A stretch of 32,000 nt of DNA from Candidatus Hermodarchaeota archaeon. GTDB taxonomy: Archaea; Asgardarchaeota; Heimdallarchaeia; Hodarchaeales; Hodarchaeaceae. The first letter of the stretch is position 1. Each line of letters begins with the position of its first letter. This document shows, piece by piece, positions 12,445 through 26,076 of this stretch. The position numbers and the translations under genes were made by a program. The stretch is taken from assembly GCA_048886185.1 (NCBI GenBank), contig JBHLKY010000010.1:18526-50525 (forward strand), read 5' to 3'. The notes beneath the pieces were generated by a model. That model was not told where the DNA came from. It was given only the letters and a program-made list of their open reading frames with translations, and ran no database searches.

Positions 12445-14763
12445 ATGAAGTGTTACAAAATTATATTTTTTTCAATTGTCTTCTTGATTTTTGTTGTCCA
12501 ATTCCCATTAAATTCGGTAGTAGCTGAAATTCAGACTTCTGGGAATTTTTATGGGTTTGATTGGGAATATGGATTGACAACTCGGAATTTTTCGAAGTCT
12601 TTTAGTTATACATATGATTTTTCTGAGAGCGAGACTTGGACACAACCTCGGACATTCACTATAAATGCTCCAATACGAACTGGATTAGAAATAACTGATG
12701 TTCTCTGGCAACGCTGGATAAATAGATCGAAAGCTGCACCTACAAATACATGGCAACCACCCGGATCACCTCAAAACTGGCTCGGATATCGTGCTGATGG
12801 ATTACTAACAAATAAAACTGATGTAGGAGGAGCATGGTACCGGTATCATGGCATTCAGAATCTTAATTGGGCTAATTGGCAACAAGCCCTTAATATTTCA
12901 TGGTTTGGTCGTCAGATTGATATTGGTCTTGCAGAGTTACCTAATCAGTTGGCTACATGGAAAACAAGCTATTTAATATTGACTCCCATAAGTAATGTGA
13001 CAGTTCCAATGCAGGATTGGTTGGCTGTAAAACACGATTCTATGAATGTAAGTATCTATCATATTGCTTATATTTATGACAATGGGACTCCTGGTGTCTA
13101 TACTGACGATATTGTTGTTTTTCAGGAATTATTGGTGCCTCAATTTGTTCTCGTTAGGGTTCTTACTACTTTATATCAAGTTAGCGTAACCGAAACTAAA
13201 TCAGTTGGAGTTTCTCTCTCTGGTACCTTTAATTTTTCAGGAACTTGGGAAGAGAATCTCTATGGCCAACATGTGTCAATCAATGATGGAATGAACTATG
13301 GATTCGATTATTTTGCGCTTATTTCTGGGGATGTCACCTTCGATGCTTCTGGTGGATTTTCATTACAGGGATATCTCTCAAACAATATTACACGAGATGT
13401 AACATTTGTTGATGGTGGAGCTCCTATTCCAGAGGCTATTCGGCCTATATGGCTCCAATCATTACGAATTAGACTTGCTGGTAACTGGGATCACTCTCAT
13501 GCTGAAAGTGGTACCCTTTATGGAAAAGGTGCTGTTCAAAGTATAATTCAAGTACTCTTGACAAAGGCTTCTACAGATCAATTACCAAACCTTGCAGCGT
13601 GGGGAAACTTCAATCCTGGCAGGTTGATTGGTTATAAAGATGTTGATGGAGATGGAATCCTAACCGCATTTTTGAATGAGTCTCAAATAGCAACTTCTGA
13701 TGCAATCATGGCTATTGGATTCCCTGAAGGTGCCTATCTTGAAGGGGAATATAATGGAAAAGTTATAGCAAATGCTGATGTTTATATGTCTTTAGGTGAT
13801 TGGATAATTGCTGATAATGAATCTACCGCTACCATGATAGTTGATAAATCCGTTAGCGAGACTTGGGGCTATGATCCGCGCAATTCAGAAACAGGGCCAT
13901 CAGACGTCAGTCTAGTATGGAAAGAACCACTAGAAAGTGATGGAATAGCGACATTTGAATGGGAAACCACCTATTCAGATACTCCTGTGACTTGGTGGGC
14001 TAAAAATGATTCTACCGTGCTAATTACTCAGGATCTGGCTGATATCACTTATGGTTATTCTTTATCGATTAATCCTGAAGTAGGGGAAGCAAAACTAGAT
14101 ACTACATATAGTCAATCTGCAATTCAAGATGTTGCTTTAAAGAGCATGATCGAGTCTCAGTCAATTAGCATGGCAACTTATCATCGAGATTATTACCTCT
14201 CAATGACCCAAACGAGTGCAGATACATCTGGAGCGTTTTCAAGATTAGAATCCCAATTTACAACAACTGTTAGCGGAGAAGACCTATTCTCACAAGATTT
14301 TGGAGGTAAGAAAGAATCATATTACTTACATAACTCACCAAGTACAAAATATGAAGCAGGGACTTCAGTAATGAATCTCTTGACCGCGGAAGGTTTTTCA
14401 GGTGAACCTACGAATAGAACAGAAAGAAATCCTTTCTCATCTCCCATTTCTAAACGAATAGCAGCAGCACTTACTCAATGGTCTGCAGATAATCAAGAAC
14501 CAGGTGTTTCGTGGATTTTCAGAGAAAATATTGTGATTACAAGTTATCCAACATGGAATGGAGAAGGAATTACCCACGATCCAACTTATTCAGCTTTTTA
14601 CGCTGGCACAGGTGCTCGAGTAGCTGAGACAACTGAGACTTCAGGAGCATCAGAACTGCCAGAATCCACACCTGAAGAAGGTGTTCCTGGATTTGGCCTT
14701 GGATTCTCCATGGTAGTCTTATCTACAATCACTTTACTTATCAAAAAACAGAAACCTAGATGA
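12445..14763 (+). CDS. Large secreted surface glycoprotein candidate with PGF-CTERM-type sorting signal
   Basis: N-terminal signal peptide (MKCYKIIFFSIVFLIFVVQFPLNSVVA); at least 12 N-x-S/T sequons; DVDGDG motif; Thr/Glu/Ser linker followed by GVPGF, a TM helix and a basic tail KKQKPR. Confidence 0.8.
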   Translation: MKCYKIIFFSIVFLIFVVQFPLNSVVAEIQTSGNFYGFDWEYGLTTRNFSKSFSYTYDFSESETWTQPRTFTINAPIRTGLEITDVLWQRWINRSKAAPTNTWQPPGSPQNWLGYRADGLLTNKTDVGGAWYRYHGIQNLNWANWQQALNISWFGRQIDIGLAELPNQLATWKTSYLILTPISNVTVPMQDWLAVKHDSMNVSIYHIAYIYDNGTPGVYTDDIVVFQELLVPQFVLVRVLTTLYQVSVTETKSVGVSLSGTFNFSGTWEENLYGQHVSINDGMNYGFDYFALISGDVTFDASGGFSLQGYLSNNITRDVTFVDGGAPIPEAIRPIWLQSLRIRLAGNWDHSHAESGTLYGKGAVQSIIQVLLTKASTDQLPNLAAWGNFNPGRLIGYKDVDGDGILTAFLNESQIATSDAIMAIGFPEGAYLEGEYNGKVIANADVYMSLGDWIIADNESTATMIVDKSVSETWGYDPRNSETGPSDVSLVWKEPLESDGIATFEWETTYSDTPVTWWAKNDSTVLITQDLADITYGYSLSINPEVGEAKLDTTYSQSAIQDVALKSMIESQSISMATYHRDYYLSMTQTSADTSGAFSRLESQFTTTVSGEDLFSQDFGGKKESYYLHNSPSTKYEAGTSVMNLLTAEGFSGEPTNRTERNPFSSPISKRIAAALTQWSADNQEPGVSWIFRENIVITSYPTWNGEGITHDPTYSAFYAGTGARVAETTETSGASELPESTPEEGVPGFGLGFSMVVLSTITLLIKKQKPR

Positions 14764-14962: not shown

Positions 14963-16327
14963 ATGATTGAAGAAAAGACTATCAAGGAAGATGCATATAA
15001 AAAATCATGTGAATCACCTTCCTCAATAACACAATCTGGTTTGAGAGAGAAAGTCCCTATATGGGGAACGAGTATTGGTTATGCTGCTGGAAGATCATCC
15101 ATTTTTGTCTACTTATCGTATTTTGGGATAGTTCTCGGAGCAACTCCTTTAGAGCAATCTATCTTAACTTCTGTTAGAAATTTAGGTTCTAATATATTTC
15201 AAGGGATTTGGGGTTGGTTATCTGATCTCCGTGGAAGAAAATTTGTTATTGTGATTGGTCTTTCAGCGCTTGCAGTAACCTGTGTGTTATCACCTTTTGT
15301 AAGGAATCCTATGGAGCTTGTAATAATTTCCTTAGTTATGACAAGCATTGGATTCAGTATCATTCCCGCATGGAACGCTTTTTTAGGGGATTATACTTCT
15401 GAAGAGGATCGAGCTTCATTTGTCGGAAAAATCAACTCAATTGGTACTATGAGCTCGGTCTTATTGATTCTCTGCTTGGGAATTCTGATGGAATTGAGTC
15501 CATTTCCTTTTCCAAAGGTACCAAAGGATTACACATTGAGTAAACCAGTATTTTTTATACCATTTTTCTCTGCTGGATTAATTTTTCTAGGAACTATTAT
15601 TGTTTCCTACTTTTTAATAGAAAAGTATGATGCTAGACAAAGAGTAGTAATTGATGAAGAGTTTCGTCCTTCTTGGAGGATGTTAATTCAAAGAAATGAA
15701 CCTTTCAAACGTCTTTTACCTATTAGTGCTTTTTTCTCATTCGCAATGTCTACAGCTTGGCCAATTTTTCCTTTTGTTACTTTAAGGGTCGCAGAATCAT
15801 GGTTAATGGTAGCTTTAATATGGATCATGTTCAACATTCCGAGAGGTTTTGGTCAGAATTTAGGTGGTCGATTGGCTGATGAAGTGTTCAATAAAAAAAT
15901 TGTTATTTTGTATTCTAGGCTTGGGTACGTAACGGTTCCTATTGGTTATGCCATAGGACTTCTTACAGGAAATCCTTGGTATCTAGTGGTTGCCAATATT
16001 CTTGGAGGTTTTGCCTTTGGTGCCGAGGACACTAGCATCGCTACTTATTGTCTAGATTGTTCTACTGAAGAGACGAAGGGTCGTTACTATTCGATGTTAT
16101 TGACTGCAGGAGGGATTTGTGCATTCCTGGGTTCATTATCAGCAGGATTTGTAATGGATTTATGGTTACGAATTGCAGGAATTAATTATAATAGCCCTGA
16201 TTTCAATGTGATTCTCTTTTTAATGTTAATTCTAATTGCTACATTGCGAATGGTATCAGCTAGCTTGCATAAATTCATTTTTTCCAATCCTTTGGACTTT
16301 GAGTTTGATCAAATAATCTCTCCATAA
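14963..16327 (+). CDS. MFS transporter
   Basis: About 12 TM segments; MFS motif A variants GWLSDLRGRK and GRLADEVFNKK; EEDRASFVG and EETKGRYYS helix-boundary motifs. Confidence 0.9.
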   Translation: MIEEKTIKEDAYKKSCESPSSITQSGLREKVPIWGTSIGYAAGRSSIFVYLSYFGIVLGATPLEQSILTSVRNLGSNIFQGIWGWLSDLRGRKFVIVIGLSALAVTCVLSPFVRNPMELVIISLVMTSIGFSIIPAWNAFLGDYTSEEDRASFVGKINSIGTMSSVLLILCLGILMELSPFPFPKVPKDYTLSKPVFFIPFFSAGLIFLGTIIVSYFLIEKYDARQRVVIDEEFRPSWRMLIQRNEPFKRLLPISAFFSFAMSTAWPIFPFVTLRVAESWLMVALIWIMFNIPRGFGQNLGGRLADEVFNKKIVILYSRLGYVTVPIGYAIGLLTGNPWYLVVANILGGFAFGAEDTSIATYCLDCSTEETKGRYYSMLLTAGGICAFLGSLSAGFVMDLWLRIAGINYNSPDFNVILFLMLILIATLRMVSASLHKFIFSNPLDFEFDQIISP

Positions 16328-16360
16328 AGAATTTGTGAAGGAATTATCACACGATTAGAA

Positions 16361-16372
16361 ATCCCTTTTTTT
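16361..16372 (+). terminator. Oligo-T terminator candidate
   Basis: ATCCC-T7, 34 nt after the MFS stop codon. Confidence 0.5.
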
Positions 16373-16482
16373 ACCGACATATCTATTACTCACATGATAT
16401 GGGGCAATATCAATCTTGAAGGGAAGTGGAGATGTAACTAATCTACAAAATTCTGTGATTATTAATTGGAGGATATAAAAGA

Positions 16483-17097
16483 ATGAGTATCCTTTCGAGG
16501 ATTTTTGCTAGAAGTCGTAAGACTAAATTGACCATTGGGATTTTAGGGGCTCCCAATGCAGGAAAGACAACATTAGCAAATCGCATTTCTAGTGAATGTG
16601 GAAATGGAACCCCACTTGGAGATGTTAGCCCTATTCCACACGAGACTCGTGATGTGGTGGCACTAGAGCATTGTACAATTGCTGATCATAACGGATCTCT
16701 AGATTTGACTATTGTTGATACTCCAGGTATTGCTACCTCTGTGGATTATAGAGAGTTCCAAACTTACGGATTGTCGAGACAGGAGAGTATAGAACGAGCA
16801 AAAGAAGCTACGAGGGGCGTTATCAAAGCTATTCAATCTCTTGACAGATTAGATGCTGCAATCGTTGTTGTTGATGCTGCTAGAGCACCATTTGACCAAA
16901 TTAACTGGACTGTCCTTGGTAACCTAGAAGCGAGAAATATTCCTTTAATAGTTGCTGCAAATAAAACAGATTTGCCTGAGGCCGATCCTAGGCTTGTCGA
17001 AGAAACTTTCGAGAGTCAGATTATCCCAATATCAGCTAAAGAAGGGACTGGGATGAATGAGCTTTATGGGAGCATCCTTTCTGTAGCCAATACATAA
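16483..17097 (+). CDS. oapA: Archaeal Era-like small GTPase OapA/ArvA
   Basis: G1 GAPNAGKT, IPHETR, G3 DTPG, VDYREF...RAKEATRGV, G4 NKTD and G5 ISA match the haloarchaeal OapA/ArvA family as I recall it. First gene of the characteristic three-gene operon; GGAGG upstream. Confidence 0.88.
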   Translation: MSILSRIFARSRKTKLTIGILGAPNAGKTTLANRISSECGNGTPLGDVSPIPHETRDVVALEHCTIADHNGSLDLTIVDTPGIATSVDYREFQTYGLSRQESIERAKEATRGVIKAIQSLDRLDAAIVVVDAARAPFDQINWTVLGNLEARNIPLIVAANKTDLPEADPRLVEETFESQIIPISAKEGTGMNELYGSILSVANT

Positions 17098-17108
17098 GAG
17101 GGCTGAAC

Positions 17109-17426
17109 ATGGAATTAAAAATAGATTTTGTTACTGAATTTACAACTCGAAAAATGAATTCTTCACAGAAGTGTAACTTTATAATTTCGAAGCTTCGACA
17201 TGATAGAGTCATTGTGTTTGAAGGAGGTCTCGAACCCAATGAAGAGGCAATTTTGATAGAAGAAGCAATGAATCAAATTGATCATGAAAGTTTTTTGGGT
17301 TATAGAATTATTAACCCTACTCCTCTCCGTAATCCTAGTTCAGGGTTGTTTTCTAGACATAAAGACGTTAAAATGACTGTGATTGCTCCATACAACTATG
17401 AGGAATTGTCAGTAGCACTTGTCTAG
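17109..17426 (+). CDS. oapB: DUF2073-family protein OapB/ArvB
   Basis: VIVFEGGLEPNEEAILIEEAM...MTVIAP pattern; lies directly after oapA. Confidence 0.8.
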   Translation: MELKIDFVTEFTTRKMNSSQKCNFIISKLRHDRVIVFEGGLEPNEEAILIEEAMNQIDHESFLGYRIINPTPLRNPSSGLFSRHKDVKMTVIAPYNYEELSVALV

Positions 17427-17441
17427 GTTTGGCGGAAAAAA

Positions 17442-17795
17442 GTGAGCTTATCAAATAGTGAAGTTAATCTTAACAAATATCAATGCGCTGAGTGTAGAAG
17501 AACACCAGTGAAGGCACAAGAACTTTTTCAAGGGTGTATTTGTGGGCATCGGCTTTTTCGAATTGTACGAGAAAGTAAGGATTTTCTTTCTGATACAAAC
17601 AAGAGGACGAGGAACAATTCTATTAACAAAACAGAAAACATAAATTTCCTTAGTATTCAAGAGCTGGAAATTGGTGTTTATGATATTAATGTGGATAAAA
17701 TTTTTGCTAGCAAATCTAACATAAAGGGTGCTCCCCCCCTAGTTGTAGGTAATAATGGCGTATTTTCAATCTATCTAAAACATCAAAAAAAATGA
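17442..17795 (+). CDS. oapC: Zn-ribbon protein OapC/ArvC (DUF2072-like)
   Basis: CAEC...GCICGHRLF ribbon; C-terminal GVYDINVDKIF and GVFSIYL; third position in the operon. Confidence 0.78.
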   Translation: MSLSNSEVNLNKYQCAECRRTPVKAQELFQGCICGHRLFRIVRESKDFLSDTNKRTRNNSINKTENINFLSIQELEIGVYDINVDKIFASKSNIKGAPPLVVGNNGVFSIYLKHQKK

Positions 17796-17809
17796 AATCC
17801 ATCTAAGAC

Positions 17810-18784
17810 TTAATCTGTTGTTTTAATTAGCTTAATCTCTCGTGTGACCTCATTGAATTCACACACAGACAGTTCATGGAGATGGCGAAGATGTGTCCGG
17901 CAAATAATGGGAGGAATTCCTACCTCAGTCGATAATGTTCCCAAATCAAGTGATTTTTTCTTTGTATTGGCAAAATAGTCAACAAGAAAAAGTAATATTC
18001 TACCTAATTCTGTTTGTTGCAAAACGACTCTTATGTGTCTATCCCTCGTTAGGGTTCCTTCTGTTTCACGGGTTAAATCCTCTGTCATTTGTCCAGCTCG
18101 TTCTTCTGTCCTTTTGATTTCTCTTTTCAATTGATCTTGAATTTCGAGGTGACTAGTTTCAATTTCTTTGATTTCTTCTTCGGTCTGGTGTATAACATCT
18201 TGCAGCTTTGCGATTTGGGTTAATAGAGTTTCTCTCTCAGTTTGAAGATTTTCTATCATCGTTCTGGAATTCTGTAATTTTATCGAATATTCATCTTCAA
18301 TTGTTGCCAAAATGTTCTTTGTTTCTTTTAATTCCACCTCTAGGGTTATTACTTGTTCTGTTTTTTCATTTAGTTTCTTCTGAATATCTGATATGACCCG
18401 ATTTTGTCCTTTCTCAATATTAGATAGTTCTAAACTTTTGGCCTCAAGATTAGTCTTTATTGCAAGCATCATCTGAGTTTTCTCAGCTAGTTCCATGTTT
18501 GCAGCTTTAAGGGCTTGCATTTTTGTTCTTAACAATCCTTTTGTCTCTGCTAGTTCCCTTTCTATCACCTTTTCTTTTTCCTGTGCTTCAGCCTGGAATT
18601 CAGTTTTTTTTTCCTGTAATCGTCGAATCTGATTTTCTAACTCTATTATTCTTTTAGCGTAATCATTAACAGAATACATAGGTTCAGAGTGTCCAGGATT
18701 TTGTGATAGATCAGAATTAGATGCTTTGGAATTACTTAATTGATTTTTTACCCGTTGGTTTTCTCTTAATTCTTCATTTCCCAT
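17810..18784 (-). CDS. Hypothetical long coiled-coil protein with predicted C-terminal winged-helix domain
   Basis: About 200 aa of E/K/Q/L-rich heptad sequence. The last ~70 aa (ILLFLVDYF...LGTLSTEVGIPPIICRTHLRHLHELSVCEFNEVTREIKL) follow an HTH plus beta-wing pattern. Confidence 0.75.
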   Translation of the reverse strand: MGNEELRENQRVKNQLSNSKASNSDLSQNPGHSEPMYSVNDYAKRIIELENQIRRLQEKKTEFQAEAQEKEKVIERELAETKGLLRTKMQALKAANMELAEKTQMMLAIKTNLEAKSLELSNIEKGQNRVISDIQKKLNEKTEQVITLEVELKETKNILATIEDEYSIKLQNSRTMIENLQTERETLLTQIAKLQDVIHQTEEEIKEIETSHLEIQDQLKREIKRTEERAGQMTEDLTRETEGTLTRDRHIRVVLQQTELGRILLFLVDYFANTKKKSLDLGTLSTEVGIPPIICRTHLRHLHELSVCEFNEVTREIKLIKTTD

Positions 18785-19099: not shown

Positions 19100-19297
19100 A
19101 TGATAAGTTCAGAGACAGATAAAACTGCAATTTCAATATTAGATGATGCAGAGAAAAAGTGCCTTTATTGCAATAAATCTAGTATGTGTAATAAATTCAT
19201 ATGTTATAAGAAGAAGCAAGCTGAAGCAGATTGTACCAAGTGTGAAGAACGTTTATGTAAACATCACTGGCGTATTTACTTTCGAAATAATATTTAG
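19100..19297 (+). CDS. Small Cys/His-rich zinc-finger-like protein (65 aa)
   Basis: 7 Cys and 2 His spaced C-x2-C-x5-C-x4-C-x9-C-x2-C-x4-C-x-H-H. It occupies otherwise empty intergenic space, with TTTAAAT upstream. Confidence 0.6.
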   Translation: MISSETDKTAISILDDAEKKCLYCNKSSMCNKFICYKKKQAEADCTKCEERLCKHHWRIYFRNNI

Positions 19298-24538: not shown

Positions 24539-25093
24539 CTATTGGATTCTTAAAGTCTTGCGTTGATCTTTGATGTGGTTTACAATTTTCCAAGCAAGTT
24601 CAAGAAATCCAGATTCAACACCAGTTCCATCAAGCGCTGATGTTTCGTAATAATTGGCATTGAATTTTCGTGCAAAGTTTTCTCCATCCTCCTTTTTAAT
24701 CGCTATATCTTCCTGAAGGTCGCACTTGTTACCGAACAGCATTAAAGGTACATTACCTACTCTTTGAGTAAAATCCTCCTGCCATTTTTCCAGTTTTTCT
24801 AATGTTGAAGGCCGTGTGAGGTCAAAGACCATTATTCCACCACGAGCATAAAGATAATATTTCTTGCGAATTGTACGAAAAGTATCTTGTCCTGAAAGAT
24901 CCCATAGCTGCATGGTCATACTTATCTTCCCCTCCTCCAGCTGAATTTTTTTTATTAAGAAATTACTACCTATTGTTGTGATATAATCATGAGTAAAAGT
25001 ATGTTGAACATACCTGCGGATAAGCGAGGTCTTCCCTACGCTTCCTTGACCAAGCATCACAACTTTAGCGCTGTAATTAACCATATTTTTCAC
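24539..25093 (-). CDS. Rab-like small GTPase (Ras superfamily)
   Basis: G1 GQGSVGKTS, effector YITTIG, G3 WDLSGQD, G4 GNKCD, G5 ETSAL. No C-terminal prenylation cysteines. Confidence 0.92.
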   Translation of the reverse strand: MKNMVNYSAKVVMLGQGSVGKTSLIRRYVQHTFTHDYITTIGSNFLIKKIQLEEGKISMTMQLWDLSGQDTFRTIRKKYYLYARGGIMVFDLTRPSTLEKLEKWQEDFTQRVGNVPLMLFGNKCDLQEDIAIKKEDGENFARKFNANYYETSALDGTGVESGFLELAWKIVNHIKDQRKTLRIQ

Positions 25094-25239: not shown

Positions 25240-26076
25240 ATGTTTGTGAAATCAACCTATCAAGAATTTGAATCAGTAATCCTTTATGAAACTCTTGTCA
25301 TCATTTGGATTATTTTTACAGTTATTACTCAATTCACCTCAGAGTGGGTATCATTGGTGCAAGTCGTCCTTTTTTCATACATTGTAGCCCATTTTCTATT
25401 GAAAGATTCTCATCGCCTTATTATTCACCCCCTAACTATTGTTATCCTTCTTTATCTTGTTTTTCGGGTGGACCAAATGATCATGAACACTGTTGTTACT
25501 CAGATTTTAACTGAAATTACTACTCAAACTCTTGTTTTTTTGTTAAAGTACGGTGAAACGATTTTATTACTTGTATTTTTCGGATCTTTTTATTTTTTTC
25601 AGTTGGATTGGAAAAGTCGGTTAAGAAAAATCACCAGAAGACTCCCCTTCATCACTTTAATATTTCTTTTCTTCTTATTGATCATAATTGGTAACTTTTC
25701 ACAAAATGAAGTAATTTTGATAAATCCTACTACTATGCAAATTGAAGGATTTACTAGGATATCCATTGTTGGATCTTGTTCTGGTATTTATGGATTGATA
25801 ATATTTTTAAGTAGTTTTTTCTTTTTTATAAACGTTACAAGAACTAACCGAAGTTTTAAGAGAAAATTAGTAATTTTTCTTGGGATAGTTGGCGTCATAG
25901 GGATTTATGCAGTTAATTTGCTTAGAATCCTCATTCTAATTAACTTAAGTTTTTATTTTCCTTCAGATATCTGGAGTGAAGCACATATTTACCTTGGAGG
26001 AATATTTATTATCAGTTATCTTGTGATTTATTGGGGAATTATTTGGTCTTTGCTCCCAATTCACTCCTCTAATTAG
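25240..26076 (+). CDS. Archaeosortase/exosortase-family membrane transpeptidase
   Basis: Polytopic membrane protein with the family's ordered motifs: Cys in IVGSCSG, Arg in VNLLRI, His in SEAHIYLG. Confidence 0.82.
   Translation: MFVKSTYQEFESVILYETLVIIWIIFTVITQFTSEWVSLVQVVLFSYIVAHFLLKDSHRLIIHPLTIVILLYLVFRVDQMIMNTVVTQILTEITTQTLVFLLKYGETILLLVFFGSFYFFQLDWKSRLRKITRRLPFITLIFLFFLLIIIGNFSQNEVILINPTTMQIEGFTRISIVGSCSGIYGLIIFLSSFFFFINVTRTNRSFKRKLVIFLGIVGVIGIYAVNLLRILILINLSFYFPSDIWSEAHIYLGGIFIISYLVIYWGIIWSLLPIHSSN

Follow-up and report, generated by a model that had tools for sequence, protein, structure and literature searches.

The closest described relatives of the locus analysed here come from Haloferax volcanii, in which Mills et al. 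(2024, PNAS) named the ArvA, ArvB and ArvC family (OapA, OapB and OapC; HVO_3014, HVO_3013 and HVO_3012) (PMC10927574). In that organism, knockout of arvA abolished extracellular vesicles (EVs) and its overexpression raised EV output 3.5-fold, knockout of arvB lowered it 3.1-fold and knockout of arvC raised it 1.65-fold; the same authors described an N-terminal amphipathic helix in ArvA, a resemblance of ArvB to SepF and the conservation of the operon, and argued from ArvA that membrane trafficking driven by GTPases may have begun in archaea (PMC10927574). They reported ArvA mostly from Euryarchaeota and DPANN and from '8 out of 183 Asgardarchaeota genomes', and the eight Asgardarchaeota rows of their Dataset S10 are three Jordarchaeia and five Baldrarchaeia, several from one assembly, with no 'Heimdall' row (PMC10927574); the class to which our host belongs is therefore missing from the published survey. 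Here we analyse a window of 32,000 nucleotides (the whole stretch under study, positions 18,526 to 50,525 of contig JBHLKY010000010.1, assembly GCA_048886185.1, Candidatus Hermodarchaeota archaeon) and report that its host carries a complete and intact arvA-arvB-arvC (oapABC) operon in the canonical order. We consider it fairly probable that this operon is a Hodarchaeales orthologue of archaeal arvABC, vertically inherited within the class Heimdallarchaeia and with a proposed role in vesiculation.

The three genes are separated by 11 nt between arvA and arvB (17098-17108) and by 15 nt between arvB and arvC (17427-17441), and a Shine-Dalgarno-like GAGGG can be read a few bases 5' of the arvB start. 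This order and spacing had been proposed in the original prediction and are borne out by the open reading frames (ORFs), by the Pfam OapB match and by an alignment of ArvC. ArvB scores 59.5 bits on OapB (PF09846) against a cut-off of 27. ArvC reaches 21.7 bits (E 2.5e-4) on OapC (PF09845), just below the cut-off of 23; judged by its sequence, the third gene is nevertheless a divergent but full-length OapC/ArvC, because its alignment with canonical ArvCs covers both the zinc ribbon and the C-terminal module. In this alignment (A5), which joins the host ArvC to ORFs just 3' of arvB in named Methanobacteriaceae, Archaeoglobaceae, Thermoplasmatales, Hydrothermarchaeota, Woese-, Pace-, Micr- and Aenigmatarchaeota, PF09845 is matched by 22/22 members (best E 1.3e-32), and the beta-rich C-terminal module has the pattern G-x-Y-[ED]-I-[ND]-V ... 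G-x-[YF]-x-I in the host as in euryarchaeal and DPANN ArvCs. NCBIfam holds no specific model for ArvA, ArvB or ArvC.

The arrangement is not due to chance, since adjacency of arvA and arvB recurs in every Asgard locus examined and in most loci outside the phylum. For the latter we used 80 named loci from outside the Asgards, those closest to the ArvA of Methanobacterium (retrieved with ArvA alignment A2), which span Methanobacteria, Archaeoglobi, Methanosarcinales, Thermoplasmata, Hydrothermarchaeota, Altiarchaeota and DPANN, with no haloarchaeon among them; arvB lies directly 3' of arvA in 77 of the 80, arvC comes next in about two-thirds, and a profile built from Asgard ArvCs only finds the ORF 3' of arvB in most of them. 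Within the Asgards, a tight A-B-C order is seen in the host genus, in family f14 (Freyarchaeum) and in family f30; in Heimdallarchaeaceae, arvC stands some 5-6 kb away from arvAB, and in one genome of family f7 it is on a different contig. In f7 (L006, L017 and L031), arvB is followed, in place of arvC, by a 170-aa P-loop protein (GTPGVGKTT) that looks like an adenylate kinase/Fap7-type kinase.

The GTPase belongs to the ArvA family. An exhaustive phmmer search with ArvA against 1.84 billion representatives (clustered at 50% identity) returned 24 clusters at E<1e-30 and 97 at E<1e-10, in which the ArvA clusters scored 120-227 bits and the next family, Der/EngA (450-aa proteins), at most 66 bits. 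The top clusters contain, among others, named sequences of Methanobacterium, Altiarchaeota and Thermoplasmatota, and the nearest named euryarchaeal ArvA, that of Methanobacterium, is 46-48% identical to the host protein. In the phylogeny called for by the original prediction, the host GTPase falls inside an ArvA group of 67-68 rows that is split from the Der, Arf, Ras and FeoB outgroups by branches of several substitutions per site. HVO_3014 is absent from these trees, with no haloarchaeal ArvA among the retrieved sequences; the link to Haloferax is drawn from the matches of the H. volcanii control genome to Pfam OapB as well as OapC, and from the published survey. ArvA was delimited by Mills et al. 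as a protein of <250 aa with a complete GTP-binding site (PMC10927574), and the host protein, encoded by a single-copy gene, is a single domain of 204 aa with complete GTP-binding motifs. All of the motifs G1 to G5 (including SAK at G5) are intact and conserved, and the host ArvA also has the family invariants beyond them (alignments A2 and A3), namely the switch I motif S-x-[IV]-P-H-E-T-R, which is kept in the ArvAs of Euryarchaeota and DPANN as well, and RAKEAT.G in the next helix.

Some other ArvA homologues have notable features. Inteins occur in several metagenomic homologues (P0163, P0167, P0181, P0182 and P0185; Pfam Intein_splicing, 49-86 bits), one of which also has a LAGLIDADG homing endonuclease, and their place in the alignments suggests the P-loop region as the insertion site; inteins are, as a rule, found at conserved positions of important proteins. 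Two homologues labelled Nanohaloarchaea (P0166 and P0172) have an N-terminal extension of about 85 aa with a weak match to the helix-hairpin-helix family HHH_5. Many Asgard arvA genes (L144, L145, L151, L015, L008 and L006; MSW..., MLDK...) apparently start with TTG, and public gene calls agree.

Regarding the type of GTPase, ArvA is Era-type and not Arf/Sar1-type. The top Pfam match is MMR_HSR1 (60.2 bits), the Arf profile (PF00025) reaches 23.5 bits over residues 2-38 only, and NCBIfam Era gives 51 bits against a cut-off of 237. The AlphaFold2 (AF2) model (mean predicted local distance difference test, pLDDT, 88.5; predicted template modelling score, pTM, 0.85) has a classical G-domain fold whose best PDB folds are Era (3iev; template modelling score, TM, 0.70), MnmE, Der/YphC, IF2, LepA and EngB, with 2gj8 and 9bsl also among the top entries; Arl3, Arl13B and KRas come only after Era, MnmE and Der. 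A PDB sequence search matches only the G domains of Der, Arl and MnmE, of which Der/EngA is best, and finds no close solved structure. The closest paralogue in the host genome by BLAST is an Arf-like protein (29% identity, E 2e-6), and Arf-like outgroups stand across a branch of >5 substitutions per site in the more careful of our two trees. The host genome does hold 66 Arf-profile matches, that is, Arf/Ras-type GTPases (best 164 bits; several broken by stop codons), among which the arvA locus is not found, and a Ras-family gene of 159 bits lies 7 kb from arvABC. The coexistence of the operon with many Ras/Arf-type GTPases (Rab-like ones in the original prediction) is thus confirmed; as ArvA is Era-type, any tie to the vesicle GTPases of eukaryotes is by analogy and not by descent.

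The P-loop of ArvA holds Asn25 and its DTPG motif is followed by Ile83. A P-loop Asn together with a hydrophobic residue after DxxG are what we take to be the marks of cation-dependent, 'hydrophobic amino acid substituted' (HAS) GTPases such as Era, MnmE, FeoB and Der. HAS GTPases hydrolyse GTP without the catalytic Gln of Ras and Arf, often relying on K+ binding and dimerisation. Given Asn25 and Ile83, ArvA is therefore predicted to be activated by cations and/or dimerisation. Hydrolysis of this type would also alter the task of a GTPase-activating protein ('GAP') such as ArvC.

The same resemblance raises the alternative that ArvA is a ribosome- or RNA-associated GTPase of the Era/Der kind whose effects on vesicles are indirect. 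MMR_HSR1 as the top Pfam family, Der/EngA as the best sequence match in the PDB, Era, MnmE and Der bound to ribosomal particles as the best folds, and the P-loop Asn and hydrophobic residue after G3 that also mark Era, MnmE and FeoB all fit it, as do database labels of the kind '50S ribosome-binding GTPase' or 'Era-like GTP-binding protein' and the RNA-rich content of Haloferax vesicles (PMC10927574). However, neither Pfam nor the AF2 model reveals a KH or other RNA-binding or accessory domain in the 204 aa of ArvA, its conserved partners are ArvB and ArvC and not ribosomal genes, and a ribosomal role leaves the conserved basic and amphipathic N-terminus unexplained. In H. volcanii, moreover, ArvA is enriched in vesicles, and both its knockout and its overexpression shift vesicle output (PMC10927574). 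We therefore judge a primarily ribosomal ArvA to be unlikely.

The host genome is that of an Asgard archaeon of the class Heimdallarchaeia, order Hodarchaeales, so that the original prediction of a probable Asgard genome was correct and the euryarchaeal contig that it had allowed for can be set aside. The ArvA homologues most similar to the host protein, at 77-92% identity, come from organisms named Candidatus Heimdallarchaeota, Hodarchaeota or Hodarchaeales, B3_Heim among them; the host genus also contains Heimdallarchaeota B3_Heim (Hodarchaeales), and the class is Heimdallarchaeia because a family of the same class, f4, includes Ca. Heimdallarchaeum aukensis and Ca. Heimdallarchaeum endolithica. 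Two sets of NCBI records labelled 'Thorarchaeota archaeon' (G071:C13/P0043, and a 4,791-bp contig with P0002 and P0122) encode an ArvA or ArvB 79-91% identical to that of the host; these organism labels look wrong, and G071 is classed in the B3_Heim genus.

A survey of 400 genomes of the phylum, searched with PF09846 and independently with the ArvA protein (E<=1e-25), found ArvB in 97 and ArvA in 98, and the pattern by family was the same for both queries except for one genome of family f1 (G075) found with ArvA only. In the host class, ArvA is present in 73 of the 82 other genomes and ArvB in 72 (about 90%), and in the host order ArvA was found in all 23 of the other genomes; outside the class, 24/317 genomes of the phylum gave a match. 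By family, matches within the class were found in f1 (20-21/21), f2 (2/2), f3 (1/1), f4 (29/31), f5 (3/3), f6 (11/12) and f7 (6/12). Elsewhere in the phylum they were found in f11 (4/4), f13 (5/5; Jordarchaeales/Freyrarchaeum), f14 (6/6; Ca. Freyarchaeum deiterrae), f24 (5/7), f30 (1/1) and f32-f33 (3; f33 with Wukongarchaeota/Hodarchaeota labels), and none in f20 (0/135), f12 (0/19) and f19 (0/14). The rarity in Asgards implied by the original prediction does not hold up, given that ArvA had already been recorded there by Mills et al. (PMC10927574) and that NCBI already labels a Hodarchaeales protein 'OapB/ArvB family protein'.

Of the maximum-likelihood trees of ArvA (LG+C20+F+G4; outgroups Der, the host Arf-like and Ras-like proteins and FeoB G domains), the careful one places the 40 non-Asgard rows in one clan (ultrafast bootstrap, UFBoot, and SH-like approximate likelihood-ratio test, SH-aLRT, 93/88) and the host ArvA in a 100/100 clade with B3_Heim/Hodarchaeales; families f4, f7 and f14 are each monophyletic in it. 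In both trees, no Asgard ArvA is nested in any euryarchaeal or DPANN subclade. Monophyly of the Asgard ArvAs is not rejected (cost 0.7 log-likelihood units, lnL; P value of the approximately unbiased test, p-AU, 0.43). The constraint that moves the Hodarchaeales clade into the non-Asgard clan costs 40.6 lnL and is rejected (p-AU 0.006). The guanine plus cytosine (GC) content is 0.37 at 16001-18000 and 0.351 genome-wide. Class-wide presence, the tree tests, conserved synteny and unremarkable local GC together argue for inheritance of arvABC within Heimdallarchaeia and not for a recent transfer.

Lateral transfer of the operon to Hodarchaeales from Euryarchaeota or DPANN, which the original prediction had left as an option, could be suspected because ArvABC is commonest in those groups (PMC10927574), because its distribution in the Asgard phylum is patchy (with the three large blanks f20, f12 and f19) and because the tight A-B-C order of the host is like the euryarchaeal and DPANN layout, in contrast to the distant arvC of Heimdallarchaeaceae. 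Against this stand the near-universality of arvAB in the order and the class, the tree topology with its rejected joining constraint, the GC content close to that of the genome and the synteny kept across the genus, so that a transfer of this kind is very improbable. In the same trees, the ArvA on a 6-kb contig of a bacterial metagenome-assembled genome (L116, DATGWN010000107.1, labelled Acidobacteriota) groups with Nanoarchaeota ArvAs; this is most likely a mis-binned archaeal contig.

The name Oap recalls that the Haloferax operon adjoins a replication origin (PMC10927574), and the operon could be an origin-associated factor in that original sense. Its surroundings speak otherwise. The four Orc1/Cdc6 genes of the host genome lie on contigs C1, C3, C13 and C36, and a search with the Cdc6_C profile found no Orc1/Cdc6 on the 208.9-kb contig that carries arvABC (C10). 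In five Asgard genomes assembled as one contig each (two from the host genus, two of Heimdallarchaeum and one of Freyarchaeum), arvB and the closest Cdc6_C match are about 370-690 kb apart, and a Cdc6-like ORF lies within 2.5 kb in only 1/80 of the named non-Asgard loci. As the Haloferax mutant also showed no replication function (PMC10927574), we regard a role at the origin as extremely improbable, and the origin linkage of Haloferax is not found here. The ORFs of 400 aa after arvC in L098 and L113 were considered as Orc1 and rejected, being YchF/OLA1-like GTPases by their N-terminal sequence.

For the function of the operon, what the genes are, their order, the family to which they belong, where they occur and how they fall in the trees are observed, whereas the mechanism that we propose draws on the H. 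volcanii work (PMC10927574) and on sequence. In this proposal, ArvA would be a small Era-type GTPase that, to judge by its P-loop Asn and by the hydrophobic side chain at the site of the catalytic Gln, is probably activated by cations and/or dimerisation. Loaded with GTP, it would attach to the membrane from the cytoplasmic side by means of its short, basic and amphipathic N-terminus and would there promote membrane budding or the release of extracellular vesicles; ArvB, whose fold is weakly SepF-like, would serve as positive co-factor or adaptor, and ArvC, with its zinc ribbon and C-terminal module, as a negative regulator. ArvA would thus work in an Arf/Sar1-like mode (an amphipathic helix coupled to a GTP switch) without being a member of the Arf/Sar1 family. 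The N-terminus, which starts with MSILSRIFAR, has a hydrophobic moment of 0.64 over residues 1-10, four Lys/Arg and no Asp/Glu (net charge +4), and the pattern [ILF][LI]xx[ILF][FL], with hydrophobic pairs at i, i+1, i+4 and i+5 followed by four to six Lys/Arg, is family-wide.

ArvB invites a further alternative, in which a SepF-like ArvB anchors a filament (FtsZ, CetZ or tubulin-like) to the membrane under the control of ArvA, as a membrane-tethering or cytoskeletal module that serves division or cell shape and not vesicle release. Its AF2 model (mean pLDDT 81) is a small alpha/beta domain whose top PDB fold is archaeal SepF (7al1; also 6sat and 3zig), and the resemblance was noted by Mills et al. 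too (PMC10927574). However, the match is weak (E 4.9e-3, TM 0.46/0.54, root-mean-square deviation about 6 Å), a Pfam scan of ArvB gives no SepF match, ArvB lacks the membrane-targeting sequence of SepF (PMC10927574) and none of the loci examined has a gene for FtsZ or tubulin linked to arvABC; we hold this module to be improbable. A PDB sequence search with ArvB found nothing beyond a chance-level match to RAD57, and a word-indexed search with ArvB reached relatives at the Hodarchaeales level only, the distant ArvBs coming from the genome profile search. Complex prediction for ArvA and ArvB (alignments A3 and A4) gave a score of 0.01 and a mark of 0.32, which carry no weight either way.

Several points count against an inherited vesiculation operon and have to be set beside the evidence above. 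The potentially amphipathic N-terminal helix of the original prediction stands as regards its amphipathic, basic and conserved character; for the helix itself, AF2 gives residues 1-14 as coil with a pLDDT of about 50, and such a modelled coil is compatible with a helix that would form only on membranes, yet is no evidence for one. The N-terminus is also about 10 residues shorter in Asgard ArvAs than in those of Euryarchaeota and DPANN. The vesiculation role of Asgard ArvABC is extrapolated from Haloferax, and Mills et al. themselves state that it is not known whether all ArvA-family GTPases make vesicles (PMC10927574). As to inheritance, the clade used in the test with p-AU 0.006 was picked after inspection of the tree. 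In addition, the quick tree recovers Asgard monophyly (SH-aLRT 89) and the careful tree places the outgroup root on the long Hodarchaeales stem, inside the Asgards, and the AU test does not separate the two; outgroup rooting is unreliable, also for the direction of the deep history.

Among the small GTPases of archaea, only for ArvA is there experimental evidence that it drives the formation of vesicles, and Hodarchaeales are the proposed sister group of eukaryotes. The operon is found nearly throughout the class in genomes with dozens of Arf/Ras-type GTPases, which places the system beside the eukaryotic stem and offers an experimentally tractable vesiculation GTPase, with a concrete set of proteins for experiments, in the archaeal class closest to eukaryotes. 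More tentatively, and with the odds in our view against it, ArvABC could be an ancestral, near-universal membrane-remodelling module of Heimdallarchaeia, Hodarchaeales included, so that the archaeal ancestor of eukaryotes would have run an Era-type vesiculation GTPase with an amphipathic helix alongside its expanded set of Arf/Ras-type GTPases and eukaryotes would later have lost or replaced it. If that were true, the published survey would have missed a prokaryotic precursor or competitor of Arf/Sar1-type budding that is open to direct test.

The host assembly comprises 4.84 Mb in 75 contigs and is 96% complete. The features of the operon and its surroundings in the window are collected in the table below.

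Table 1. Positions of the arvABC genes, their motifs and neighbouring genes, numbered from the first letter of the window
Feature	Position	Strand	Remarks
Shine-Dalgarno-like GGAGG	16469..16473	+	9 nt 5' of the arvA ATG; putative, from sequence alone
arvA (oapA)	16483..17097	+	204 aa, ATG start; single-domain Era-like GTPase, ArvA family
ArvA codons 1-14, MSILSRIFARSRKT	16483..16524	+	short amphipathic segment, then basic cluster; candidate membrane anchor (hydrophobic moment, conservation)
ArvA G1/P-loop GAPNAGKT with Asn25	16546..16569	+	G22, N25, G27 and K28 invariant 59/59
ArvA switch I signature S-P-I-P-H-E-T-R (G2 Thr55)	16627..16650	+	S49, P52, H53, E54 and T55 invariant 59/59
ArvA G3 DTPG, then Ile83	16717..16731	+	I/L/V at this position 59/59; catalytic Gln there in Ras/Arf
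ArvA G4 NKTD (guanine specificity)	16960..16971	+	N160, K161 and D163 invariant
arvB (oapB, DUF2073)	17109..17426	+	105 aa, ATG start; alpha/beta protein
arvC (oapC, DUF2072)	17442..17795	+	117 aa, GTG start; zinc-ribbon protein
ArvC zinc ribbon C15-x2-C18-x13-C32-x-C34	17484..17543	+	C32 and C34 invariant; C15 and C18 in at least 90% of A5
ArvC C-terminal module (FLSIQELEIGVYDINV ... GNNGVFSIYL)	17646..17777	+	G78 and G106 invariant; A5 consensus ETIR..G.YEINV ... EG.Y.I.L
Coiled-coil gene	17810..18784	-	324 aa; no Pfam family
Cys-rich ORF	19100..19297	+	65 aa; CxxC ... CxxC ... C
Ras-family gene	24539..25093	-
Gene for a secreted protein	12445..14763	+	772 aa, hydrophobic C-terminal tail; no Pfam family
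Gene for a 278-aa protein	25240..26076	+	no Pfam family

All ten same-genus loci share the gene order ABC-ABC-MFS-arvABC, convergent coiled-coil gene, Cys-rich ORF, nucleotidyltransferase and phosphomutase. The coiled-coil gene, whose stop codon is 14 nt from that of arvC, is thus syntenic in 10/10 of these loci; it was considered as a fourth component of the system and rejected, as it was not detected beside arvAB in eight loci from families f3-f7 and f14. The Cys-rich ORF keeps its position in most same-genus loci (62-89 bits) and probably encodes a real small zinc-binding protein.

Compared with known systems, the locus is closest to Haloferax ArvABC, with which it shares a three-gene, same-strand operon in the order A-B-C, an ArvA of <250 aa with an N-terminal amphipathic segment, an ArvB in Pfam OapB/DUF2073 and an ArvC of the OapC/DUF2072 zinc-ribbon type. 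It differs in its Asgard host, in an ArvC divergent enough to score just under the Pfam cut-off, in the lack of an Orc1/origin neighbourhood and in the shorter N-terminal segment of ArvA, the last in a comparison of aligned Euryarchaeota and DPANN that contains no haloarchaeal sequence. The ArvAs of Jordarchaeales and Freyarchaeum (f13 and f14) belong to the same family, phylum and tree and have arvB adjacent; the published Asgard rows are from Jordarchaeia and Baldrarchaeia, whereas the Heimdall class, in which about 90% of the genomes have arvAB, is not among them. The G domains of Era, Der (EngA) and MnmE provide the best folds and share with ArvA the GxxNxGK[ST] motif and the hydrophobic residue after DxxG. 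ArvA differs from these proteins in lacking a KH, second G or accessory domain, in its SxIPHETR switch I, in its basic amphipathic N-terminus, in its linkage to ArvB and ArvC and in a link to vesicles that is experimental, in Haloferax. With Arf/Sar1 and the Asgard Arf-like proteins, ArvA shares the proposed GTP switch that would expose an N-terminal amphipathic helix and the short match to the Arf profile at residues 2-38; in contrast to them, it has Ile83 where Arf has a catalytic Gln and Sar1 a His, and the Arf profile does not match over its full length. Full-text searches for ArvA with Asgard or Heimdall, or for 'vesiculating GTPase' with Asgard, found no relevant paper other than that of Mills et al. 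The ArvABC system is thus already known and its family is recognised by routine annotation, so that our results extend its distribution and do not add a new kind of system; what is new is that the system is nearly universal in Heimdallarchaeia and Hodarchaeales, that its lateral transfer is rejected, that it is not linked to an origin and that ArvA is of the Era and not the Arf type.

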